Source of the DNA: Escherichia coli
GTDB taxonomy: Bacteria > Pseudomonadota > Gammaproteobacteria > Enterobacterales > Enterobacteriaceae
Assembly (NCBI RefSeq): GCF_024223415.1
Contig: NZ_CP100500.1
DNA: 64,000 nucleotides
Strand: one strand, 5' to 3'
Under the pieces are notes generated by a model. The model had not been told where the DNA came from and did not search any database. It worked only from the letters and a program-made list of their open reading frames with translations. The translations under genes and the position numbers were made by a program. Below are positions 19,753 through 37,587 of this stretch, one piece after another (the first letter of the stretch is position 1; every line of letters starts with the position of its first letter).

Positions 19753-19804
19753 ACGCGCGGGTGCCTTTCGGCTGATGGCCGGAGGGAAAACCTGAAGGCC
19801 GGAT

Positions 19805-20038
19805 GTGGAAAGGCCCCGGAAAACATTTCTGTTTAACCGAGGCCCTAACCGCATTACCTTGACAAGTGAAAGGTTAGCGCCTCTCCGGAAAAGGAGCAAG
19901 TGCTATGTCGCAAAAATCGCTTACGGCCATCACGTTCTGCGTGACGGCAATCCTCATCATCTGGATATTGCACGGTTCGCTGTGCGAAATACGGATGAGC
20001 TTCTGGGGAGCGGAGTTTGCGGCGTTCTTACAATGTAA
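19805..20038 (+). CDS. mok-like overlapping reading frame
   Basis: 77-codon frame overlapping hok1 in a different frame, as in hok/mok loci. Confidence 0.3.
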   Translation: MERPRKTFLFNRGPNRITLTSERLAPLRKRSKCYVAKIAYGHHVLRDGNPHHLDIARFAVRNTDELLGSGVCGVLTM

Positions 20039-20045
20039 GAAGTAA
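19905..20045 (+). CDS. Hok/Gef-family type I toxin (46 aa)
   Basis: MSQKSLTAITFCVTAILIIWILHGSLCEIRMSFWGAEFAAFLQCKK: TM helix plus SLCEI..AAFL.CK signature; AAGGAG 8 nt upstream. Confidence 0.6.
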   Translation: MSQKSLTAITFCVTAILIIWILHGSLCEIRMSFWGAEFAAFLQCKK

Positions 20046-20133
20046 GGAAACCGCGACGGGGGAGCAATCCCCCGTCAATCGGTTGCCAGGGTAAGGTCGA
20101 TAAGGCACCCTATCTCACAGACATGAACAAACA

Positions 20134-20167
20134 AACCCGCAGCATAAAAACTGCGGGTTTTCTTTTT
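20134..20167 (+). terminator. Intrinsic terminator after hok1
   Basis: cccgcag cataaaaa ctgcggg followed by ttttcttttt. Confidence 0.5.
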
Positions 20168-20571
20168 GGTGTCCTCACCGACTTGAAACAGTGATCAGAC
20201 TATAAGACAAAGCCCGCAATGTTGCGGGCTTACTCTACCTCTCGAAAATGTGGTCACTGCGTGGACATACGCTGATACAAATCCTTTATATCAATAAATT
20301 AAATCTTTGTTTTTTTCATCAACAATGATTTAACCTTATCCTCACCGGAGGAGAAATGCAGTTCAATCTCAATATCGTTTCTGTGGAACAGCCTCATAAG
20401 ACAACCTCCTGAATTCATCAGAAACACAGTCAACTGAAAACCAGAAAGCAGACAAACAGTGGACACACATTAATACAAATCATTTATACCTATAGATGAA
20501 ATTGCAGTTTCATCTATAACATGACAGGTAACAATATTGTGAAAAAACTCAAAACTCGTTAGATTAAAGAC

Positions 20572-20651
20572 GGACAGAGCAATGCTACTTTATCAATAAC
20601 ATGTAACCTGTACTTCCTTATTTTGCCCGCCGAAGCACGGGCATTTTTTTT
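20572..20651 (+). ncRNA. Candidate small RNA S2
   Basis: TTGTGA(20537)-N17-TAGATT(20560), terminator at 20625-20651; central region differs from S1. Confidence 0.3.
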
Positions 20652-20849
20652 GCGCCTGCCATCGAGGCGCCTTCCCTGGCGCACACAAAGCAGCCCTGAT
20701 TTTCCATGAAAACTTCAGGGTTGAGCCAAAAGCACAAAGACAGTAGATTAACCACGGGTGCCTTCCACCTGACAACAGGAAGGGTGTCCAGTATCAATGA
20801 CAGACAACTCACATTGCTGTTTTGCCCGCCGGAAAGCGGGCATTTTTTT
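20652..20849 (+). ncRNA. Candidate structured RNA U2
   Basis: Copy of U unit ending in terminator 20821-20849. Confidence 0.3.
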
Positions 20850-21219
20850 ATTCTTTTGTGGTTATTGGGTCATCAGGAACAACATGCAGATTATGCTTTG
20901 ATTTTTTTGGTGTTATTACAGCAGCAACGAGTTTATTAATAAGACACTGACATGCCTGAACATCCCTGACATATCATAATATCACTTTATTTTTTTAGCT
21001 TGTCCTTTCTGGAGCAGAAATATCTCAACATCGTTTCTGTGGAACAACCTCATTTGCCCTTGAATGTATCATAAATATCAGCATCGGAAAACCAACAGCA
21101 ATACAGAAGAAACATGTTAATGCAAATCACTTATACCTATAGATGAAATTACAGTTTTGTTCATAAATATGATAAGTAACTATATTGTGAATAAAATGAA
21201 AACTAGCTAAATTAAACGT

Positions 21220-21300
21220 GGGCATGGTGGAATGCCTCGTAATCAATAATACATGATCCGTACTTCCTTGTTTTGCCCGCCGGAAAGCGGGCATTTTTTT
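21220..21300 (+). ncRNA. Candidate small RNA S3
   Basis: TTGTGA(21185)-N17-TAAATT(21208), hairpin gggcatggtggaatgcc, terminator to 21300. Confidence 0.3.
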
Positions 21301-21497
21301 GGCGGTTACCATCGCCTCACCTTCCTGGTTCACATGAAGCAACCCTGATTTTCCATGAAAACTTCAGGGTTGAGACAAAAGCACAAAGACAGTAGATTAA
21401 CCACGGGTACCTTCCACCTGACAACAGGAAGGCTGTCCAGTATCAATGACAGACAACTCACATTGCTGTTTTGCCCGCCGGAAAGCGGGCTTTTTTT
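21301..21497 (+). ncRNA. Candidate structured RNA U3
   Basis: Copy of U unit, terminator 21469-21497. Confidence 0.3.
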
Positions 21498-21698
21498 GGC
21501 AGTTATCATAGCCGCACCTTCCTGGCACATATGAAGCAACCCTGATTTTCCATGAAAACTTCAGGGTTGAGACAAAAGCACAAAAACAGTAGATTAACCA
21601 CGGGTGCCTGCCACCTGACAACAGGAAGGGTGTCCATTATCCATGATATACAAACGAAAAGTCTTGTCTTTTGCCCGCCAAAGCGCGGGCATTTTTTT
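21498..21698 (+). ncRNA. Candidate structured RNA U4 (hok-associated subtype)
   Basis: Copy of U unit with the same 3' end as U1, terminator 21671-21698. Confidence 0.3.
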
Positions 21699-21909
21699 AT
21701 GCATCAGACAAGATACAGCCCACCCCAACTGACACCTGAAATATTGCCGCAACAAAAAGAAACGGGTGCCTTTCGGCTGATGGCCGGAGGGAAAACCTGA
21801 AGGCCGGATGTGGAAAGGCCCCGGAAAACATCTGTGTTTAACCGAGGCCTGACCCTTCCTACCGTGACAAGTGGAAGGTTAGCGCCTCTTTGTAAAAGGA
21901 GCAAGCGCT

Positions 21910-22050
21910 ATACCGCAAAAAACGATTATTGTTGGCATTTTATGCCTGACAATAACCCTGGTCATCTGGATGGTCCACGATTCGTTATGTGAATTCAGCT
22001 TTGATATCTGGGGAGCGCGTTTTGCGGCGTTCTTGCAGTGTAAACCGTAA
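21910..22050 (+). pseudogene. Hok-family toxin remnant: start codon ATA, promoter -10 deleted
   Basis: Frame encodes PQKTIIVGILCLTITLVIWMVHDSLCEFSFDIWGARFAAFLQCKP after AAGGAG, but first codon is ATA and an in-frame TAG lies 10 codons upstream. Confidence 0.55.
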
Positions 22051-22200
22051 GAAACCGCAGCGGGGGAGAAATTCCCCGCTATCCGGTTGTTGGGGTGGGC
22101 CGATATGGCGCCCTTTCCCTGTAGAGACAAAACAAAAAACCAGATTTGCCCGCCATTGAGAGGGCTTTTTTGTCACCCTCACCAGTGAGGGCATCATCAT

Positions 22201-22428
22201 TCAGAGGCGCGTAAGCCACCCGGCGTTAACATCCTGCCTGTCAACCCTGGCCGCAGAGTCTGAACGGCAGGTACCGGAAGGAGTACCAAAAACATCCCTG
22301 ACAAGTTCCGCCACCTTCCCGATATCATCAGGTGTCACATTCCTCACCTCGGCAGTGATCCGTGGCGTACCATCATCGTTAACAAGAGTGGCTTTAAAGC
22401 TGGTGCGAAGGGAAAACAACATCAACAT
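22201..22428 (-). CDS. Hypothetical protein (75 aa)
   Basis: ORF only; no recognisable motif. Confidence 0.2.
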   Translation of the reverse strand: MLMLFSLRTSFKATLVNDDGTPRITAEVRNVTPDDIGKVAELVRDVFGTPSGTCRSDSAARVDRQDVNAGWLTRL

Positions 22429-22626
22429 CCCCTCCCTTTGGTTCGTTGCACTGACGGCACGACACCATCAGGAAAAAGAAAAGCCCACAACGTCAGTATT
22501 GTGGACTTTTTTCTTCAAAGATGGACATTATCTGGACACATGAAAATAAAATCCATTTATTTTCATATAGTTAAGTACCATGCAAAAGCGCCCGCAGGCG
22601 CTTTTTAGATTCAGAAAAATTAGGTA

Positions 22627-23940
<1,314 letters not shown>

Positions 23941-24009
23941 TTAAATGGGAGATGTGGCCACAGCCTGCGACCACAGGGATACAGTAACAACATTACCGCA
24001 ACGATAACA

Positions 24010-25353
24010 TTAACGGTAGCGTTTTATGGGGCTATTTTGATCCTGTTCAGCCAGCCAGGCGAGCTTTTCGCCAATCTTGCCTTCAAGGCCCCTGTTTGTC
24101 GGGAAATAATAGCGTGTTTGTGCTATTTCCGGCGGGAAGTAAACCTCACCGGCAGCATAAGCGTTTGATTCATCATGAGCGTAACGATATTCCTGCCCGT
24201 AGCCCATTTCCTTCATTAATTTCGTCGGCGCATTACGCAAATGAACCGGCACGTCATAATCCGGGCGTTCGCGAGCATCGGCCAGCGCGGCTTTAAACGC
24301 AGTGTAGACAGCGTTGCTTTTTGGCGCGCAGGCCAGGTAAACAATCGCCTGAGCAATGGCGCGTTCACCTTCCGCCGGGCCAACGCGAGTAAAGCAATCC
24401 CAGGCCGCAATTGCCACCTGCATCGCCCGTGGATCGGCATTACCGACGTCTTCAGACGCTATCGCCAAACAGCGACGCGCGACATATAACGGATCGCCAC
24501 CAGCGGTAATAATTCGCGCATACCAGTAGAGCGCCGCATCGGGTGCGCTACCACGTACCGACTTATGCAGTGCGGAAATCAGATCGTAAAAGCGATCGCC
24601 TTTGTTATCAAAGCGGGCGCTACGTTCACCGGCGATTTCGGTCAGTAATTCAGGCTTCAGGACCCGCTTACCGCTATCATCGACTTCGGCCATATCCGCC
24701 ATCATTTCCAGCGTATTTAACGCCCGGCGCGCGTCGCCATTCACCAGTTCTGCAATGGCACGTCGTGTTTCATCTGGCAGAACAATATCCTGACCACCAT
24801 AGCCACGGGTTTTGTCTTCCATCGCCTGAGTTAGTACTTGCTCAATATCCTCTGTACTCAGGGATTTCAACAGATAAACACGGGCACGGGAAAGCAGTGC
24901 CGAATTAAGCTCAAACGACGGGTTTTCAGTGGTTGCGCCAATAAAAGTGATGGTGCCGTCTTCAATATGTGGCAGAAATGCATCCTGCTGGCTTTTGTTG
25001 AAACGGTGAACTTCGTCAACAAAAAGAATAGTGCGGCGACCTGCATTGCGGTTTTGCCGGGCGCGCTCGATCGCCTCGCGAATCTCTTTCACGCCAGAGG
25101 TGACGGCAGAAATACGTTCCACATCAGCGTTCGCATAGCGGGCAATCACTTCAGCGAGGGTTGTTTTGCCGGTACCCGGTGGCCCCCAGAGGATCATAGA
25201 ATGCAAATGCCCGGCTTCGATAGCGCGCGGCAGCGGCTTCCCCGCAGCCAGCAAATGTTGCTGGCCGATATACTGTGCTAAATTTTCTGGCCGCATACGC
25301 GCGGCCAGAGGTTGAAAAGTATTATCCGAAAAATCGAGCGACAGATTGCTCAC
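24010..25353 (-). CDS. rarA: Replication-associated recombination protein A (AAA+ ATPase)
   Basis: 447 aa; Walker [10 protein letters not shown]; conserved serS-rarA-lolA-ftsK synteny. Confidence 0.93.
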
Positions 25354-25363
25354 TCAGGTGCCT

Positions 25364-25975
25364 CTACTTACGTTGATCATCTACCGTGACGCCTTGCGGC
25401 GGGGTGAAGGTAAATTTCGCTGCATCCACAGCCCCATTTTGCTGGGATTTCAGCTGATAACTGCTGCGCTGATCGTCCTGCTCCACCGCGCTAAACTGAT
25501 GGATTGTGCCATCACGTCCCACGTTAATGGTGAACTGCTTCAGATTGCCATTGCTGGCTTTCGGCGTCAGGACAAAGTCATCGCCATTCTGTTTGATATT
25601 GTACTGCTGCCAGTCGCTGGACTGGTTGCGGGCAATCAGCATAAACGGCGTATTACCGGTGGCATCTTTCAGCCAGGTTGCCGTAGCTTGCTCAACGAAC
25701 GGGTTATAGAACCACAGTGTTTTACCGTCAGAAACCAGAATGCTTTCATCAGGTTGTGTCATATGCCAGTTGAATAAGTTTGGACGTTTCACCCACAGAT
25801 CGCCCTGACCTTCCTGCACCGCCGCGCCGCTACCGTCAGTCACTTTTTGTGTGAAGCTGGCGTGGAAGCTGCTGACTTTATCCAGGCGGCTTTTCAGATC
25901 GCTTGCGGCATCAGCCCAAACGCTGCTTGCTACTAAGCTTGAGAGTAATGCACAGGTGATGGCAATTTTTTTCAT
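25364..25975 (-). CDS. lolA: Outer-membrane lipoprotein carrier protein LolA
   Basis: 203 aa from [21 protein letters not shown] signal peptide. Confidence 0.93.
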
Positions 25976-26133
25976 CATTATTCCTCAAATTACGTCACTC
26001 CCGATCGGGAGTTCCCTCTACTCTCTATTCCAGGCTAATAATCAGCTTGAGGAAAGAAGAAAATACTGAATTTTCAGTTGATAGAGTGCCGGATGCGACG
26101 CTACCGCGCCTTATCCGGCATACGATGCATTAA

Positions 26134-29100
26134 TTAGTCAAACGGCGGTGGGGCCAGCACTTCACGATTACCGTTGTGCCCCTGTTCGCTGACAATCCCC
26201 TGCGCTTCCATCTGTTCGATAATACGCGCTGCACGGTTATAACCAATGCGGAACTGACGCTGTACGCCAGAAATTGACGCTTTGCGTTTTTCAGTGACAA
26301 ACTGCACCGCCTGATCGAACAACGGATCCAGTTCTTCAGCGCCATCGAAACCACCCGCACCACCTTCGCTTTCGCTGTCGGAGGTGATGCCATCAACATA
26401 CTGTGGGCGACCACGCGCTTTCCAGTCCTGCACCACGGCATGAACTTCCTGATCGCGAACAAAAGCACCATGGACACGTACCGGCAACGTGGAGTTCGGC
26501 CCAGAGTAGAGCATATCCCCCATACCCAGCAGTGATTCCGCGCCAGCCTGATCAAGAATGGTACGTGAGTCAATCTTACTGGATACGGTAAAGGCGATAC
26601 GGGTCGGAATATTCGCTTTAATCAGACCAGTAATAACATCAACCGATGGACGCTGAGTTGCCAGTACGAGGTGGATACCCGCGGCACGGGCTTTTTGCGC
26701 CAGACGTGCTATCAGCTCTTCCACTTTTTTACCTACCGTCATCATCAGGTCGGCAAATTCATCCACCAGCACCACAATGTATGGCTCTTTTTTCAGCACC
26801 GGATGCTGAGCATCCATACTGTCACCCGGCTTCCAGTACGGGTCTGGAATCGGACGCATCATGCGATCGGCTTCAGCAATTTTTTCGTTATAACCCGCCA
26901 GATTACGCACACCCAGCGCAGACATCAGTTTATACCGACGCTCCATCTCGTTAACACACCAGCGCAGCGCGTTGGCGGCATCTTTCATATCAGTAACGAC
27001 TTCCGTTAACAGATGCGGAATGCCTTCATAAACCGAAAGCTCCAGCATTTTCGGGTCGATCATGATGAAACGCACATCTTCTGGCTGCGCTTTATAAAGC
27101 ATGCTCAGGATCATCGCGTTCACACCGACAGACTTACCGGAACCGGTAGTCCCCGCAACCAACAAGTGCGGCATTTTCGCCAGATCGGCAACCACCGGCT
27201 CACCGGCGATATCTTTACCCAGCACCACGGTTAATGGCGACGGATTATCGCGGAATTTGGCGTTATCCAATACTTCGCGCAGATAAACGGTTTGTCGTTT
27301 TTTATTCGGTAACTCCAGACCTACATAGGGTTTGCCAGGAATAACTTCAACGACACGCACCGCCACCGTCGAAAGTGAACGGGCAAGGTCCCGTGACAAG
27401 TTAGAAATGCGCGCCGCTTTTACGCCCGGTGCCAGGTTAAGTTCAAAGCGAGTGATAACCGGCCCCGGAGAGTAATTGACGACATCGGCTTTAATACGGA
27501 AATCAGCCAGACGTGCTTCCACCAGACGCGCCATTTGTTCAAGCGCAAAGGTATCTACCGGCTCCACTTCGCTCGGCGGCGGTGTCAGCAAATCCAGAGA
27601 AGGCAGCGGCGTCGTCGGTTTATGCAACGGACGGCTGTCGCCATTACGCATCAACAGCGGATGAAGCAGAGTATCCTGCGGCTGTGGCGCAACTGGCTGT
27701 TGCGGCTGCTGATATTGCGGCTGTGGTGCAGCCGATTGTTGTGGCTGCTGATACTGCGGCTGCGGCGCAACTGGCTGTTGCGGCTGCTGATATTGCGGCT
27801 GCGGTGCAACCGGTTGTTGCGGCTGCTGATATTGCTGCTGCGGTGCAACCGGTTGTTGCGGCTGCTGATATTGCTGCTGTGGCGCAACCGGCTGTTGTGG
27901 CTGCTGATACTGCTGCTGCGGTGCAACCGGTTGTTGCGGCTGCTGTACAGGTTCAACAATTGGCGTAAACAACGGTTCGTGTGGACCATCATCCAGCAAC
28001 GCTTTCATTGGCGAAAATTCAAAATCATCCAGCGAGAACGGATTCGCCCCAGCCGGTTGTTCGCCGGAATAACGTTGTTGTTGAGTTTGCGCAAACTGAC
28101 GAGCCAGTTCAGCCTCTGCCGCAGCATCTGCATCTTCTGCGTTTACGGGCACATCATGTTGATACTGTTCGCCATAGCGTTGCTGCTGTGTCTGGGCGAA
28201 CTGACGTGCCAGTTCATCCTGCTGCATCGCATCGATTTCATCATCGTTATACTGATCGCCAGAATCGTACTGATTGCGCTGGGCTTCACGGGCTTTTTCT
28301 TCCGCCGCACGCTGTGAGGGCAGCTTAATACCGTAAGACGCCAATTCACGACGAGTTGGCACGCGGATACGTTTCGGTCGTGGCAACTGCGGGCCAATCC
28401 CCTCTTTGACCTGCGGACGCGGTCCACCGCTATTTGCCAGACTGAAGACTGGCGCGGCAACGGTTGCGGCAGCCCCCGTCGCCAGTGTCGCTTTTTTCAC
28501 GCCAGATGCCAGCGGAGAAACAGCGGCAGCGGCTTCTACTGGAGGTACTGCTGCAACAGAAGGTGCTTTCAGCGAAGATTTGATCGGTTCTGGTTCTTTA
28601 ACCGGTTCTGGAATCGGTTGATACCAGGCCGCAAGTTGTTCACGTTCACGGGCTCGCTTCTCTTCCACTTCTTCAAAGTAGTAAAGCGGCGGACGCGCGG
28701 GTTTTGTCTCTTCTACAACGGGTTCAGGCTCCACAATAGGCTGCTGTTCAACAGGTTGCTGCTGTTGGTACAACGGCTCCTGAGCGGCTGGCTGCTGATA
28801 AGTTTGCTCAGTCTGGTATGTAGACTGTGGAGCAAAAGTGGATTGCTGCTCTTCGGCTTGCCAGGCGTTACCTGCCACCGGTTGTTCTGGCGCAGGGGCA
28901 TAATACGGCTGTTGCGCAGGCTGTTCCGGCGCAGTTGCGTAATACGGTTGCTGAACAGGTTGTTCCGCCGCAGGAGCGTAGTAAGGTTGTTGCGCAGGTT
29001 GTTCAGCTGCAGGTGCATAATACGGCTGCTGCGGCTGTACTGGTTGTTGCAGCGGCTCATTATATTGCACTGCAGGCTGCGCATATTGTGACTGCTGTGG

Positions 29101-30240
29101 GTAACCTTCCGGTGCAGGAGCAATAACCGGCTCTCCCGTTTGTGGACCCGGTACAGGCTGCCAGGCTACTGTAGGTTGCGCAGGTGGAACATCAACAGAG
29201 GCAACAGGTGGCGTCTGAGTCACAGGTTCAACCGGTGCAGCCCAGCTTTGCGTCGCCGTGGTAGCAGCAGCTGCTACAGCGACAGGTTCGGTAATTGGCG
29301 CACCGTTTAATAATGGATCGTATTCGTCATATTCTGGCTGCGTTGCACGATTGCCCGAAAATAGGACGTCGTCCGGGTCGGCAGCCACACCGCGTGCAGT
29401 GTAGGTAATCTCTTCGTCATCATCCATCCGCTTACCGGAGAACAACGCAGCGTCTGTTTGCCGCCCCATCGGATTAATGAATTTTTCCGCCAACCGTTTA
29501 CGACGCGCTAGCGCGCCGCGAAGAATACGGGCACGGCGTGATTCATGCTGTTTGCCGTGATTTTCATCTTCATACTCTTCGTCGTCTTCATACTCATCTT
29601 CATCGACCCAGGTATCATCGCGACGGGTACGATTACTGGCGAAGGTGAGAATGTTTAAAATCCAGCCGCCGAGTTTTTCAGCAATGGTCACCCATGACCA
29701 ACCGGTGAACAACGTCAGGCCCGCTGCCCAAACGCAGAGCAGCGCAATAGTTCCCCCGCTACTGTGTAGCAGTGGTTGTAGCGTAGTGCTTAGTAAGCTG
29801 CCAATGACGCCACCGGAGGCAAAATACCAGATATCGTCAGCGTTGATTGCCGCCAGACCACAGGAGGTAAGGATGAGCGCCAAAACGCCAATGATGCGTA
29901 GCGAAACGGCAAAATAATCAATGTATTCGTCGCTGGACTGATGACGCCAGGCAAACCAACAACCGCCGACAATAATGACGGGAATGGTGTAAGCCATCAC
30001 GCCAAAAATAAAGAACAGCGTATCTGCCAACCACGCACCGGGCATCCCACCTAAATTATGGATAGGTTCATGCCAGGCCGTTTGCGACCAGCTGGGGTCC
30101 GAAGGGTTAAAGCTTAGTAAGGCAGCCATCAACCAGACGGCAAACAGGACAATAAGGATCAGCAACGCCTCCAGAAGGCGGCGGCCGCTACTTAACTTTG
30201 TCAATGTGACTTCTTTGTCTTCAGTGTATTCCTGGCTCAA
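26134..30240 (-). CDS. ftsK: DNA translocase FtsK
   Basis: 1368 aa: N-terminal membrane domain, Pro/Gln-rich linker, C-terminal motor with Walker A GTTGSGKS. Confidence 0.95.
27680..27950 (-). repeat. Tandem 42-bp repeats encoding the PQ-rich FtsK linker
   Basis: About 6 near-identical units ([14 protein letters not shown]) visible as repeated ctgcggctgctgatattgcggctg... Confidence 0.8.
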
Positions 30241-30374
30241 GAAAGGCTCTCCAGGTTACAGGCTTTTCCTGCCCGATGCTAAAACGGACAACAGTACCAG
30301 GTTACCCCAGTACTGTTGCTGTATGGATTAACAGGAGTGTAATCAAAATACGCCGATTTTGCACCTGTTCCGTG

Positions 30375-30869
30375 TTAGCGCGTCTTAATAACCAGACGAT
30401 TACTCTGCTTGACTTCTTCCATAACAACGTATGTCCGTGTGTCATTGACGCCAGGCAGACGCAGCAGGGTTTCCCCCAGCAACTTACGGTAAGCTGACAT
30501 ATCCGGCACGCGTGTTTTCAACAGGTAGTCGAAATCACCGGATACTAAATGACACTCCTGAATTTCTTCAAGTTTTTGTACAGCGGTATTGAATTGTTCA
30601 AACACATCCGGTGCGCCACGATTCAGAGTAATCTCAACGAATACCAGAAGTGATGCATCCAGATAATGGGGGTTCAGCAGCGCCGTATAGCCCTGAATAA
30701 ACCCTTGTCTTTCCAGCCGACGCACACGCTCAAGGCACGGCGTTGGGGAAAGTCCCACACGTTTAGAAAGCTCGACGTTAGAAATACGCCCATCCTTTTG
30801 CAACTCATTAAGAATGTTACGATCGATACGGTCGAGATCTTTGCCAGGGCGCTTCTTGCTATCTACCAT
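30375..30869 (-). CDS. lrp: Leucine-responsive regulatory protein
   Basis: 164 aa from MVDSKKRPGKDLDRIDRNILNELQKDGRIS; AsnC-family HTH. Confidence 0.95.
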   Translation of the reverse strand: MVDSKKRPGKDLDRIDRNILNELQKDGRISNVELSKRVGLSPTPCLERVRRLERQGFIQGYTALLNPHYLDASLLVFVEITLNRGAPDVFEQFNTAVQKLEEIQECHLVSGDFDYLLKTRVPDMSAYRKLLGETLLRLPGVNDTRTYVVMEEVKQSNRLVIKTR

Positions 30870-31296
30870 TATTATTGTCTCTCTGTATTCCTTCCCTACT
30901 CCTGTCTGACCCTGAAACATCACTGTTCAGAGTCGCTACCCGTCACGATAGACCGAAATCATGAAGATTCACGGCGCGCAATGCCTGGGTCTACGGTGAG
31001 AAGACCGTTGCCTTGTGGCAGCTATCGACATCACGAATGGCGTCTGTCCACGCCATACGTAGATTTCACTAGCACGGTAAACATGGTATTTACATGCATG
31101 GTTATGCGCATATAAGAATACTGTTTTTTTTCTTCCTCGAATGTTTTCGCAAAACACCAGGGGATTGTCAAAGCAAAACATCGATTTTTAGTACAACATG
31201 CCAGATATTCATTAACAGGGGCGTTTATTCATCATTTAATCGGCTTATAAAGCGGGAAATTTAAGTAGCAGAGGTGATAATGACGGGAGAATTTGA

Positions 31297-32379
<1,083 letters not shown>

Positions 32380-32501
32380 TTTTACAAATCAGTAACAAAA
32401 GTAAAGAAGGCGACACCATGCGACTATGGGTCGCCTTTATTTTTTCCCCGTTGTAACATTGCTCTGCAAATAATTCTGATAACTCACCTGCTAAGCGTGC
32501 A

Positions 32502-34268
32502 ATGAATAAATCTCGTCAAAAAGAGTTAACCCGCTGGTTAAAACAGCAAAGCGTCATCTCCCAACGTTGGCTGAATATTTCTCGTCTGCTGGGCTTTGTG
32601 AGCGGCATATTGATCATTGCCCAGGCATGGTTCATGGCGCGAATTCTGCAACATATGATTATGGAGAATATTCCCCGTGAAGCCCTGCTGCTTCCCTTTA
32701 CGTTACTGGTTCTGACCTTTGTACTGCGCGCATGGGTGGTCTGGTTACGCGAACGGGTGGGTTATCACGCCGGGCAGCATATCCGCTTTGCCATCCGCCG
32801 TCAGGTTCTCGACCGTCTGCAACAAGCAGGGCCAGCGTGGATTCAGGGTAAACCTGCGGGGAGCTGGGCGACGCTGGTACTCGAGCAAATTGACGATATG
32901 CATGATTACTATGCACGCTATCTGCCGCAAATGGCGCTGGCAGTGTCGGTGCCGTTGCTGATTGTGGTGGCGATCTTCCCCTCTAACTGGGCTGCGGCGC
33001 TCATTCTGCTGGGCACAGCACCGCTAATTCCGTTGTTTATGGCGCTGGTTGGAATGGGGGGTGCCGATGCTAACCGACGTAACTTTCTCGCTCTTGCTCG
33101 CTTAAGTGGGCATTTCCTCGATCGCCTGCGCGGCATGGAAACATTGCGTATTTTTGGTCGTGGTGAAGCTGAAATTGAAAGTATTCGTTCTGCTTCGGAA
33201 GATTTCCGCCAACGGACAATGGAAGTGCTACGGCTGGCGTTTTTATCCTCCGGCATTCTCGAATTTTTTACCTCGCTGTCAATTGCTCTGGTGGCGGTCT
33301 ACTTTGGTTTTTCCTATCTCGGCGAGCTGGATTTTGGTCACTACGATACTGGCGTGACGCTGGCTGCGGGTTTTCTGGCCCTGATCCTTGCGCCAGAGTT
33401 TTTCCAGCCATTACGCGATCTCGGTACGTTTTATCATGCTAAAGCCCAGGCTGTTGGCGCAGCTGACAGTCTGAAAACGTTTATGGAAACCCCGCTCGCC
33501 CATCCGCAGCGCGGTGAGGCGGAATTAGCATCGACCGATCCGGTGACCATTGAGGCCGAGGATCTGTTTATCACGTCGCCGGAAGGTAAAACGCTGGCCG
33601 GACCGCTGAACTTTACTTTGCCAGCAGGCCAACGTGCAGTGTTGGTTGGTCGCAGCGGTTCAGGTAAAAGCTCACTGCTGAACGTGCTTTCTGGTTTTCT
33701 CTCATATCAGGGATCATTACGAATCAACGGGATAGAATTACGTGATTTATCACCAGAATCATGGCGTAAACATCTCTCCTGGGTTGGGCAAAACCCACAA
33801 TTACCGGCAGCAACATTGCGGGATAACGTACTACTGGCGCGACCTGATGCCAGCGAACAAGAATTACAAGCAGCGCTGGATAACGCCTGGGTCAGCGAGT
33901 TTCTACCGCTCCTGCCACAAGGCGTTGATACACCTGTTGGCGACCAGGCTGCCCGCCTTTCCGTGGGGCAGGCGCAGCGCGTGGCGGTGGCCCGTGCGTT
34001 ACTAAATCCCTGTTCGCTATTACTGTTGGATGAACCCGCTGCCAGCCTTGATGCTCACAGTGAACAGCGCGTAATGGAGGCGCTGAATGCCGCCTCTCTG
34101 CGTCAGACAACGTTAATGGTCACCCACCAGTTAGAAGATCTTGCTGACTGGGATGTCATTTGGGTTATGCAGGATGGCCGGATTATTGAGCAAGGACGTT
34201 ACGCGGAATTAAGTGTGGCTGGTGGCCCATTCGCCACATTACTTGCCCATCGTCAGGAGGAGATTTAA
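32502..34268 (+). CDS. cydD: Cysteine/glutathione ABC exporter subunit CydD
   Basis: 588 aa; TMD plus NBD (GRSGSGKSSL). Confidence 0.92.
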   Translation: MNKSRQKELTRWLKQQSVISQRWLNISRLLGFVSGILIIAQAWFMARILQHMIMENIPREALLLPFTLLVLTFVLRAWVVWLRERVGYHAGQHIRFAIRRQVLDRLQQAGPAWIQGKPAGSWATLVLEQIDDMHDYYARYLPQMALAVSVPLLIVVAIFPSNWAAALILLGTAPLIPLFMALVGMGGADANRRNFLALARLSGHFLDRLRGMETLRIFGRGEAEIESIRSASEDFRQRTMEVLRLAFLSSGILEFFTSLSIALVAVYFGFSYLGELDFGHYDTGVTLAAGFLALILAPEFFQPLRDLGTFYHAKAQAVGAADSLKTFMETPLAHPQRGEAELASTDPVTIEAEDLFITSPEGKTLAGPLNFTLPAGQRAVLVGRSGSGKSSLLNVLSGFLSYQGSLRINGIELRDLSPESWRKHLSWVGQNPQLPAATLRDNVLLARPDASEQELQAALDNAWVSEFLPLLPQGVDTPVGDQAARLSVGQAQRVAVARALLNPCSLLLLDEPAASLDAHSEQRVMEALNAASLRQTTLMVTHQLEDLADWDVIWVMQDGRIIEQGRYAELSVAGGPFATLLAHRQEEI

Positions 34269-35990
34269 ATGCGCGCTTTGCTACCCTATCTGGCACTGTA
34301 TAAACGTCATAAATGGATGTTAAGTCTTGGTATTGTGCTGGCAATTGTGACGCTGCTCGCCAGTATCGGTCTGTTGACACTTTCCGGCTGGTTCCTCTCG
34401 GCCTCAGCGGTTGCGGGGGTTGCCGGACTGTACAGCTTCAACTATATGCTACCCGCTGCGGGCGTGCGTGGTGCAGCAATCACCCGTACTGCCGGGCGTT
34501 ATTTTGAACGTCTGGTAAGTCACGACGCGACTTTCCGCGTGTTGCAGCATCTGCGCATTTACACCTTCAGCAAATTGTTGCCCCTCTCCCCTGCCGGACT
34601 GGCGCGCTATCGTCAGGGCGAATTGCTCAACCGCGTGGTGGCGGATGTTGATACGCTCGATCATCTTTACCTGCGCGTTATCTCGCCGCTGGTGGGCGCT
34701 TTTGTGGTGATTATGGTGGTGACAATCGGGTTAAGTTTCCTTGATTTCACCCTCGCCTTTACGCTGGGCGGCATTATGTTACTGACGCTTTTCCTGATGC
34801 CACCGCTGTTTTATCGTGCGGGAAAAAGCACCGGGCAAAATCTGACTCATCTTCGCGGACAGTATCGCCAACAACTGACGGCCTGGCTGCAAGGGCAAGC
34901 TGAGCTGACCATTTTTGGTGCCAGCGATCGTTATCGCACGCAACTAGAGAATACAGAAATTCAATGGCTGGAAGCGCAACGCCGTCAATCTGAACTGACC
35001 GCATTGTCGCAAGCGATAATGCTGCTCATTGGCGCGTTAGCGGTGATCCTGATGCTGTGGATGGCGTCTGGCGGCGTTGGCGGCAATGCTCAACCCGGCG
35101 CGTTAATTGCCCTGTTTGTCTTCTGCGCGTTAGCCGCGTTTGAAGCACTGGCACCAGTAACGGGTGCATTTCAGCATCTGGGGCAAGTCATTGCCTCTGC
35201 CGTTCGGATCACTGATTTAACGGATCAAAAACCGGAGGTCACCTTCCCTGATACCCAAACTCGTGTTGCCGATCGCGTTTCGCTGACGTTACGGGATGTT
35301 CAGTTCACTTATCCGGAGCAATCTCAACAGGCACTTAAAGGGATTTCTCTTCAGGTAAACGCCGGGGAACATATAGCGATTCTCGGGCGAACCGGATGCG
35401 GCAAATCAACACTGTTACAACTGCTGACCCGCGCATGGGACCCGCAACAGGGCGAGATTTTGCTTAACGATAGCCCCATATCCAGCCTGAATGAAGCGGC
35501 TCTACGACAGACCATCAGCGTTGTTCCTCAGCGAGTGCATCTGTTTAGCGCCACGCTGCGTGATAATCTGTTACTCGCCTCGCCTGGCAGTAGTGATGAG
35601 GCTCTGTCGGAGATCTTGCGTCGCGTTGGTCTGGAGAAGCTGCTCGAGGATGCAGGTCTCAACAGTTGGTTAGGTGAAGGCGGACGCCAGCTCTCCGGTG
35701 GTGAACTGCGCCGTCTGGCTATCGCCCGTGCGCTGTTACATGATGCGCCACTGGTGTTGCTGGATGAACCTACCGAAGGCTTAGATGCCACAACCGAAAG
35801 CCAGATCCTTGAATTGCTTGCAGAAATGATGCGTGAGAAAACGGTGTTAATGGTCACCCATCGACTTCGCGGACTCTCTCGTTTCCAACAAATAATAGTG
35901 ATGGACAACGGGCAAATTATTGAGCAAGGTACTCACGCAGAACTGCTTGCCAGACAGGGGCGTTATTACCAGTTCAAGCAGGGTTTGTAA
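34269..35990 (+). CDS. cydC: Cysteine/glutathione ABC exporter subunit CydC
   Basis: 573 aa; TMD plus NBD (GRTGCGKSTL); adjacent to cydD. Confidence 0.92.
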   Translation: MRALLPYLALYKRHKWMLSLGIVLAIVTLLASIGLLTLSGWFLSASAVAGVAGLYSFNYMLPAAGVRGAAITRTAGRYFERLVSHDATFRVLQHLRIYTFSKLLPLSPAGLARYRQGELLNRVVADVDTLDHLYLRVISPLVGAFVVIMVVTIGLSFLDFTLAFTLGGIMLLTLFLMPPLFYRAGKSTGQNLTHLRGQYRQQLTAWLQGQAELTIFGASDRYRTQLENTEIQWLEAQRRQSELTALSQAIMLLIGALAVILMLWMASGGVGGNAQPGALIALFVFCALAAFEALAPVTGAFQHLGQVIASAVRITDLTDQKPEVTFPDTQTRVADRVSLTLRDVQFTYPEQSQQALKGISLQVNAGEHIAILGRTGCGKSTLLQLLTRAWDPQQGEILLNDSPISSLNEAALRQTISVVPQRVHLFSATLRDNLLLASPGSSDEALSEILRRVGLEKLLEDAGLNSWLGEGGRQLSGGELRRLAIARALLHDAPLVLLDEPTEGLDATTESQILELLAEMMREKTVLMVTHRLRGLSRFQQIIVMDNGQIIEQGTHAELLARQGRYYQFKQGL

Positions 35991-36031
35991 GCTATTATTG
36001 AACGATCCGACTTGCGTGGAGTTTTGCGGTC

Positions 36032-36736
36032 ATGCGCCTGGTTCAGCTTTCTCGCCATTCAATAGCCTTCCCTTCCCCGGAAGGCGCATTACGTGAGCCT
36101 AACGGCCTGCTGGCACTTGGGGGCGATCTTAGCCCTGCGCGCCTGTTAATGGCTTACCAGCGTGGTATTTTTCCGTGGTTTTCTCCAGGCGACCCCATCC
36201 TCTGGTGGTCGCCAGATCCCCGCGCGGTGCTATGGCCAGAATCACTGCATATCAGCCGTAGTATGAAGCGATTTCATAAACGCTCGCCCTATCGTGTCAC
36301 GATGAATTACGCTTTTGGTCAGGTCATTGAAGGCTGTGCCAGCGATCGCGAAGAAGGAACCTGGATCACGCGTGGCGTGGTCGAAGCCTACCATCGCCTT
36401 CACGAACTCGGTCATGCCCACTCCATTGAAGTCTGGCGTGAAGATGAGCTTGTCGGCGGTATGTACGGCGTGGCCCAGGGAACGCTATTTTGTGGCGAGT
36501 CCATGTTCAGCCGGATGGAAAATGCGTCTAAAACGGCGCTTCTGGTATTCTGTGAGGAATTTATCGGTCATGGCGGTAAGCTTATCGACTGCCAGGTCCT
36601 TAACGATCACACAGCATCGCTTGGTGCCTGCGAAATTCCCCGCCGGGATTACCTTAATTATCTCAATCAAATGCGCCTCGGACGATTGCCGAATAATTTC
36701 TGGGTACCACGATGCTTGTTTTCACCACAAGAATGA
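36032..36736 (+). CDS. aat: Leucyl/phenylalanyl-tRNA-protein transferase
   Basis: 234 aa, matches E. coli Aat N-terminus [20 protein letters not shown]. Confidence 0.93.
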
Positions 36737-37017
36737 ATGTTTTCGGCACATTTCTCCCCAGAGTGTTATAATTGCGGTCGCAGAGTTGGTTACGCTCATT
36801 ACCCCGCTGCCGATAAGGAATTTTTCGCGTCAGGTAACGCCCATCGTTTATCTCACCGCTCCCTTATACGTTGCGCTTTTGGTGCGGCTTAGCCGTGTGT
36901 TTTCGGAGTAATGTGCCGAACCTGTTTGTTGCGATTTAGCGCGCAAATCTTTACTTATTTACAGAACTTCGGCATTATCTTGCCGGTTCAAATTACGGTA
37001 GTGATACCCCAGAGGAT

Positions 37018-37239
<222 letters not shown>

Positions 37240-37492
37240 TTGTTTTACCGCCTGATGGGCGAAGAGAAAGAACGAGTAAAAGGTCGGTTTAACCGGCCTT
37301 TTTATTTTGTGATATGTAGGAAGTACTTTGGAAGTATAAGTCCATAACTTGTCTCGATGTAGATATACTGCACAACTTGTTTACAGTATGAGCAAACAAT
37401 AATTATCATTAAAATTCTTCTTGACCGTTTTACTCCAACTCCCTATAGTAGCGCCCCGTTGCCCCCCATGAGGTCAGGCAACAAAACAATTT

Positions 37493-37580
37493 GGTGAGGT
37501 GTCCGAGTGGCTGAAGGAGCACGCCTGGAAAGTGTGTATACGGCAACGTATCGGGGGTTCGAATCCCCCCCTCACCGCCA
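37493..37580 (+). tRNA. serW: tRNA-Ser (anticodon GGA)
   Basis: 88-nt GGTGAGGTGTCCGAGTGGCTGAAGGAGCACGCCTGGAAAGTGTG...GGTTCGAATCCCCCCCTCACCGCCA with long variable arm; downstream of infA as for serW. Confidence 0.93.
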
Positions 37581-37587
37581 GATATTG

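Follow-up and report, generated by a model that had tools for sequence, protein, structure and literature searches.

Two in-frame 39-bp tandem arrays in the linker of Escherichia coli FtsK account for its length relative to K-12

The ftsK locus and its repeat arrays

The window, a stretch of 64,000 nucleotides from the Escherichia coli contig NZ_CP100500.1 (assembly GCF_024223415.1), carries ftsK between lrp and lolA, in the gene order lrp - ftsK - lolA - rarA - serS that is also found in K-12 and in strain SCU-316 (Table 1). Pfam matches were obtained in the order FtsK_4TM (aa 20-191, E 5e-42), FtsK_alpha (aa 879-979), FtsK_SpoIIIE (aa 987-1200, E 9e-88) and FtsK_gamma (aa 1303-1363). The N-terminal four-helix membrane domain is therefore present (FtsK_4TM match), and the C-terminal alpha, P-loop motor and gamma (KOPS/XerD) domains all follow in order, with a Walker A motif, GTTGSGKS, in the translation. 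The gene matched the RefSeq ftsK of SCU-316 base for base (100% over 4107 bp), and its TTG start codon is the same as that of K-12 NP_415410.1. The initial annotation, made from the sequence alone, had called this gene ftsK, and the domain order, the lrp and lolA neighbors and the match to the RefSeq coding sequence including its TTG start all bear that assignment out: the gene encodes the E. coli-type septal DNA translocase FtsK. In the wider alignment with SCU-316, positions 22584-37583 were 99.98% identical and collinearity was confined to that interval, which is flanked by mobile elements.

The stretch that separates the membrane domain from the alpha domain contains two tandem arrays, A and B, each made of in-frame 39-bp units. 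Array B directly precedes the DTLLHP start of the FtsK C-terminal region. Together the arrays comprise 143 residues of the linker of approximately 650 residues; the earlier description of a Pro/Gln-rich linker built from repeats was thus correct in placing the arrays inside the linker but not in their extent. A third repeat within the linker encodes the same 14-residue peptide twice, and it is fixed in copy number, as judged by the constant distance of 300 aa between the two arrays in 16 alleles.

Table 1 Features of the ftsK region, in positions of the whole 64,000-nucleotide stretch
Feature	Position	Strand	Description
ftsK CDS	26134-30240	-	Single ORF, 1368 aa, TTG start; product DNA translocase FtsK
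Array B	27673-27945	-	7 in-frame 39-bp units, aa 766-856; unit of ten residues followed by (Q/P)QY; VNTR ms07 / CVN001
Array A	28876-29031	-	4 in-frame 39-bp units, aa 404-455; unit QQPYYAPA(A/P)EQP(A/V); VNTR ms06
Third linker repeat	28069-28220	-	Two 47-nt copies (28069-28115 and 28174-28220), 81% identical, 105 bp apart
ms06 amplicon	28763-29141	-	379 bp; primer sites 29122-29141 (forward, minus) and 28763-28782 (reverse, plus)
ms07 amplicon	27580-28205	-	626 bp; primer sites 28186-28205 (minus) and 27580-27599 (plus)
CVN001 amplicon	27584-28060	-	477 bp; primer sites 28040-28060 (minus) and 27584-27605 (plus)
Antisense ORF over array B	27513-27968	+	151 aa; ORF list
Antisense ORF over array B	27535-28317	+	260 aa; ORF list
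Off-frame sense ORF over array B	27651-27992	-	113 aa; ORF list
Antisense ORF over array A	28618-29091	+	157 aa; ORF list
Antisense ORF over array A	28827-29126	+	99 aa; ORF list
Off-frame sense ORF over array A	28713-29123	-	136 aa; ORF list

The period of both arrays was established in several ways. Tandem Repeats Finder, the check that had been proposed for this locus, confirmed two arrays with a period of 39 in each, calling array B at 27677-27945 (6.9 copies, 87% matches, score 398) and array A at 28880-29033 (3.9 copies, 77% matches, score 175), with a second call on array A at period 78 and 1.9 copies. An independent repeat search returned a start-to-start spacing of 39 across arrays A and B. 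When the self-match of the bases was scanned over lags of 33-51, the values at lags 39, 42 and 45 were 0.87, 0.53 and 0.43 for array B and 0.76, 0.42 and 0.25 for array A. The periodicity of both arrays is far above chance, since none of 2000 codon shuffles per array reached the observed self-match (0.91 for B and 0.80 for A, compared to null maxima of 0.63 and 0.64, respectively). The initial annotation had located both arrays correctly but had assigned them units of 42 bp and 45 bp, which are ruled out by Tandem Repeats Finder and by the self-match peak at lag 39. It had also counted about six units in array B, where the in-frame parse gives seven, and its description of the repeats as near-perfect was overstated, the mean pairwise DNA identity of units being 88% in array B (range 79-97%) and 78% in array A (range 74-82%).

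Allele lengths among E. coli genomes

FtsK of K-12 MG1655 has two units in array A and six in array B and is 1329 aa long, compared to four and seven units and 1368 aa in the window. The three additional units of 13 aa add 39 aa, which is exactly the difference between the two proteins, and the segment between the arrays is constant. The proposal that the repeats explain the length relative to the 1329-aa K-12 protein was therefore exact: the 4 + 7 combination, which is a common one, accounts fully for the 39 residues beyond K-12. We extended the comparison across strains, as had also been suggested, to a set of 16 intact ftsK alleles consisting of the window and 15 other genomes. The inter-array segment was 300 aa in 16 of 16 alleles, and the whole-unit alleles in the set all had an FtsK length of 1329 + 13 x ((A-2)+(B-6)). 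In two alleles, array B carried an in-frame partial-unit deletion, 18 aa long in one and 8 aa in the other. All intact alleles, the window and the 15 others alike, had lengths that were multiples of 3 bp, and among the alleles examined the shortest FtsK was 1290 aa (B=2) and the longest 1407 aa (B=11).

Of 5,426 complete E. coli genomes, a single one lacked the ftsK gene. Population samples were taken as rows at even steps down the ranked matches from these genomes, and the array figures that follow rest on samples of 57-59 usable rows, not on a full census. Most rows had an array B region of 869 bp (7 units; 28 rows) or 830 bp (6 units; 21 rows); the others measured 908 bp (8 units; four rows), 752 bp (4 units; one row), 1025 bp (11 units; one row) and 845 bp (-24 bp; two rows). 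For the array A region, 20 rows gave 754 bp (4 units), 20 gave 676 bp (2 units) and 19 gave 715 bp (3 units), which divides the 59 sampled genomes into nearly equal thirds. Array B mainly had six or seven units, and from two to 11 were seen among the E. coli genomes examined. Over the whole gene, the window form of 4107 bp was the commonest size in the sample (12 of 36 rows), while the K-12 form of 3990 bp and a form of 4068 bp were each seen in 8 of 36. Two whole-gene matches had the appearance of truncated or insertion-bearing genes, a reading that was rejected: the annotated genes were intact at 4068 bp, and the matches seemed partial because BLAST pieces had been joined across the repeats. 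The sole frameshifted ftsK was that of strain EC15, in whose assembly lrp and lolA were flagged as frameshifted too.

All K-12 derivatives sampled had B and A regions of 830 and 676 bp, and all O157:H7 strains sampled had 869 and 676 bp; in published data, CVN001, a typing locus that corresponds to array B (see below), is monomorphic within ST131. Array alleles thus look stable within lineages, as judged from a qualitative sample. This behavior differs from the high mutability expected of a contingency locus, with a single allele each in the sampled K-12 derivatives and O157:H7 strains and a constant CVN001 in ST131. Nor do the arrays resemble a phase-variable switch, in which changes in the repeat alter reading frame or promoter spacing and so turn the gene on and off: 39 bp is 13 codons, and 16 of 16 intact alleles remained in frame.

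Origin of the copy-number variation and its effect on the linker

Taken together, these results indicate that arrays A and B are very probably in-frame 39-bp minisatellites in a disordered linker, which change by misalignment of whole units, produce a tolerated variation in tether length and serve as lineage markers. The linker joins FtsK-N, the membrane and divisome anchor, to FtsK-C, the DNA-pumping motor. The allele structures suggest that units misalign during replication or recombination, by slipped-strand mispairing or unequal crossing-over, and that the copy number changes as a result. Most such events would add or remove whole units, singly or several at a time; more rarely, the change would be a different multiple of 3 bp. 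Because the changes are multiples of 3 bp, neither the reading frame nor the motor downstream is disrupted, and the expected effect on the protein is a tether that is slightly longer or shorter, by 13 aa per unit. If the cell tolerates such a change, alleles can persist as markers of their lineages. Direct evidence for a multi-unit event came from strain E70, where the 11-unit array B contains a 195-bp block of five units twice, with 194 of 195 positions identical, and otherwise resembles the six-unit allele of strain D2. The E70 allele is a recent in-register duplication of several units. In-frame indels of 195 bp and 84 bp reported in Salmonella ftsK fit the same picture as this block duplication.

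We examined how the units differ from one another. Inside each array the differences were chiefly at synonymous sites: pooled pS and pN between units were 0.40 and 0.046 in array B (pN/pS 0.11) and 0.74 and 0.061 in array A (pN/pS 0.08), a pattern which argues that the unit peptide is under purifying selection. In a degenerate-codon scan of one genome per bacterial species, the array-B unit was found only in Escherichia, Salmonella enterica subsp. arizonae and Citrobacter, where it occupies the same position, before the conserved C-terminal start, in differing copy numbers. In ftsK of S. enterica subsp. arizonae the 13-aa unit stands directly before the alpha domain. A simple pattern search did not find the array-A pattern in the Salmonella and Citrobacter loci, two of which comprised only part of the gene. 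The occurrence of the array-B unit in three genera, combined with the mostly synonymous differences between units, indicates that the array is old and that its units are not rapidly homogenized. The low pN/pS and the retention of the unit peptide across genera further imply that the unit sequence is constrained and might do more than act as a spacer. In view of this constraint, the near-neutral role of the tether is our own tentative inference.

The constraint raises the question of whether the repeats have a more specific function. In the literature the FtsK linker is described as unstructured, Pro/Gln-rich, about 650 aa long and variable in length between species, and FtsK depends on it for normal activity and for its contacts with the divisome. 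Parts of it are reported to contact FtsQ, FtsL, FtsI and FtsZ, and linker mutations lead to filamentation. Given their purifying selection and their presence in Escherichia, Salmonella and Citrobacter, one could imagine the 13-residue units as conserved short linear motifs whose copy number sets the valency or reach of the septal contacts of FtsK. We consider this unlikely; were it true, the coupling of chromosome clearing to division would vary measurably between lineages. A further reading, that the arrays are an adaptive tuning device in which the unit is a functional motif (a multivalent divisome contact or a polyproline-II rod) and selection on copy number tunes tether length or valency, would draw on the strong purifying selection apparent on the unit peptide (pN/pS near 0.1 in spite of the high pS in both arrays), on the conservation of unit and position across Escherichia, Salmonella and Citrobacter, and on the reported linker contacts and filamenting mutants. 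It is nonetheless quite improbable in view of the wide span of copy numbers (2-4 in A, 2-11 in B) with no sign of lost function and the division of array A into roughly equal thirds. Moreover, a swap of Salmonella Enteritidis ftsK alleles differing by the 84-bp, two-repeat indel had no effect in the single assay used, egg-white survival, and we found no evidence placing the interacting parts of the linker in the array segments.

Tolerated minisatellite variation remains the preferred reading. Repeat tracts are classic sites of misassembly, and the sample included one clearly error-ridden ftsK, that of EC15, so we considered whether the tract in the window had been collapsed or expanded during assembly. 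This is very improbable, and we rejected assembly error on the basis of identical alleles in independent complete genomes and of common sizes. The full 4107-bp gene recurs without a mismatch in SCU-316, an independent complete genome, strain 88-3493 matches the array-B region at 100% identity, and in 21-22 records identity is 99% or higher. Both array lengths of the window rank with the commonest sizes in the population, and its ftsK is in frame with intact downstream domains. At just 273 and 156 bp, and with diverged units, the arrays are also easy to assemble.

The initial annotation had further remarked that the repeats generate spurious ORFs on both strands, and six ORFs of 99-260 aa do cover the arrays (Table 1). 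Five of the six frames of array B are free of stop codons; in array A four of the six are, and a fifth contains a single stop. Off-frame stops per 300-bp window numbered nine and 13 over the arrays, the fewest in the gene, compared to 15-24 elsewhere. A Pfam search of the six ORFs gave no match at E<=0.01, and RefSeq annotation over the arrays in K-12 and SCU-316 shows ftsK alone and none of the six. The remark was thus well founded; the off-frame ORFs stay open because the units lack stop codons in the other frames, and judged by their composition the six are by-products of the repeats and not genes. That these long opposite-strand and other-frame ORFs are real overlapping genes is scarcely credible, since they are open solely through stop-free units in the part of ftsK poorest in off-frame stops, have neither Pfam match nor annotation, and would shift in length with copy number in every strain.

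For annotators, the practical consequence is that E. coli ftsK should be expected to encode about 1290-1407 aa and that repeat-derived ORFs over the arrays should be disregarded. Alleles of ms06, ms07 and CVN001 can be read straight from genome sequence for strain comparison. Beyond such bookkeeping the variation is of little importance. It is mildly interesting that the synonymous bias of the unit differences and the conservation across genera hint at a constrained repeat peptide, which poses a testable question about the role of the linker.

Comparison with known repeat loci

Both arrays are already established strain-typing loci, and the variation described here is an ordinary, known polymorphism of ftsK. 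The primers of ms06 and ms07 (sequences from PMC8215070) and of CVN001 (given as 'CNV001 (ftsK)' in PMC11773471) each had one exact match in the window, bracketing the respective array; for the CVN001 primers, 0 chance matches were expected in the window. Array A is ms06 of the Shigella/E. coli MLVA scheme, published with a 39-bp unit and alleles 2, 3 and 4 in amplicons of 301-379 bp (PMC8215070). The published range converts exactly to alleles 2-4, the window amplicon lies at the top of it, and the published alleles are the same as those in the genomes examined, so there is no difference between the two. Array B is both ms07 of the same scheme and CVN001 of generic E. coli MLVA (GECM-7/10), with no substantive difference. 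For ms07 a 39-bp unit and alleles 1-12 in amplicons of 392-821 bp have been published (PMC8215070), and the 353 bp of flank in the window turns this range into alleles 1-12 exactly. The genotype of the window is ms06 allele 4 / ms07 allele 7. CVN001 repeat numbers in the literature are mostly 5 and 6, and these published counts appear to be one below our unit count, an offset that we infer.

The K-12 FtsK linker (FtsK-L) shares with the window the protein itself, the order of domains, the unstructured PQ-rich linker, identical flanks and the positions of both arrays. It differs in copy number (2 + 6 units against 4 + 7) and also in how the unit variants of array B are arranged. The latter difference implies that the two alleles are more than one simple event apart and that common alleles have compound histories.

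In Salmonella enterica, a 39-bp VNTR in ftsK, STTR7 / SENTR2, is used for MLVA, and one Salmonella report equates the 84-bp indel with two repeats, implying a 42-bp unit there. STTR7 / SENTR2 resembles array B in its 39-bp unit, in being in frame and in its location in the PQ-rich linker of ftsK, whereas the species and the copy numbers differ (9.3 in S. Enteritidis). Judged by the arizonae unit and by the 39-bp period in the literature, STTR7 / SENTR2 is the putative Salmonella counterpart of array B.

Periodicity and minor repeats in the ftsK linker

In both arrays of 39-bp tandem repeats that encode part of the FtsK linker, the sequence matched itself slightly better at a lag of 78 than at a lag of 39 (0.91 versus 0.87 in array B and 0.80 versus 0.76 in array A), which suggests a weak two-unit super-period in each. 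The 11-unit array B allele of strain E70 (locus L015, 1045-5268) consists of a 5-unit block that has been duplicated, with 194/195 identity between the copies. A third linker repeat, whose copies lie 105 bp apart and encode a 14-residue peptide twice, was constant in copy number in 16/16 ftsK alleles compared. Two short-period tracts were also present in the gene, and the one with the 6-bp period lies in the acidic Asp/Glu-rich patch after the FtsK membrane domain.

Features of the window and of the EC15 ftsK locus
Feature	Position	Description
P2-family prophage-like segment	1-22583	End adjoins serS
Candidate sok antitoxin RNA family match 1	19759-19918	Rfam, sub-gathering score
Tandem duplication, 197 bp	21269-21653	1.9 copies, 91% matches
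Candidate sok antitoxin RNA family match 2	21764-21921	Rfam, sub-gathering score
Third ftsK linker repeat	28069-28115 and 28174-28220	Two 47-nt copies, 81% identical
Short-period tract in ftsK	28592-28619	12-bp period, 2.3 copies; PEPVKEPEP
Short-period tract in ftsK	29563-29604	6-bp period, 7 copies
tRNA-Ser(GGA)	37493-37580	
Genomic island	37584-64000	Starts directly at 3' end of tRNA-Ser(GGA)
EC15 ftsK	L012 201-4305	4105 bp; annotated frameshifted

ftsK across E. coli genomes

A sequence search of the collection, which holds 5,426 complete genomes of E. coli, gave an ftsK match in all but one. Between 8 and 13 of the ftsK-matching places in this collection sit on records labelled as plasmids. 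The neighbouring lrp and lolA genes of strain EC15 are flagged as frameshifted along with its ftsK, which points to sequencing errors in the EC15 ftsK rather than a true pseudogene.

Regions flanking the stretch collinear with SCU-316

The prophage-like segment carries genes for capsid, lysis, baseplate, tail fibre, sheath, tube, tape measure and Ogr/Delta proteins. At least 80% of it was covered in only 18 of the 5,426 genomes, and the matches listed come from chicken isolates such as DG341-1. The two candidate sok matches, spaced by approximately 2 kb, scored 46-48 bits against an Rfam gathering score of 59 (E about 1e-8). Match 1 adjoins a 46-aa ORF (19905-20045) placed where a matching genome has an annotated Hok/Gef gene; no obvious intact hok was found alongside match 2. 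From the hok gene to serS, approximately 2.5 kb (20045-22583) is without annotation in the matching genome, and the 197-bp tandem duplication within this stretch includes a hairpin resembling a terminator, GCCCGCCGGAAAGCGGGC, with a run of T residues directly after it. The equivalent region of the complete genome SCU-316 differs in lacking the prophage-like segment, with dmsA next after serS.

At the other end of the window, the genomic island combines CbtA/YeeU-type toxin-antitoxin genes, RadC and an antirestriction gene with Ag43/Cah autotransporter, ISEc8, ABC transporter and 5-oxoprolinase/biotin carboxylase genes, and at least 80% of it was covered in only 8 genomes of the same collection. 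The island appears to use either copy of tRNA-Ser(GGA), since in strain LR-31 it was found at a different tRNA-Ser gene, adjoining ghrA.
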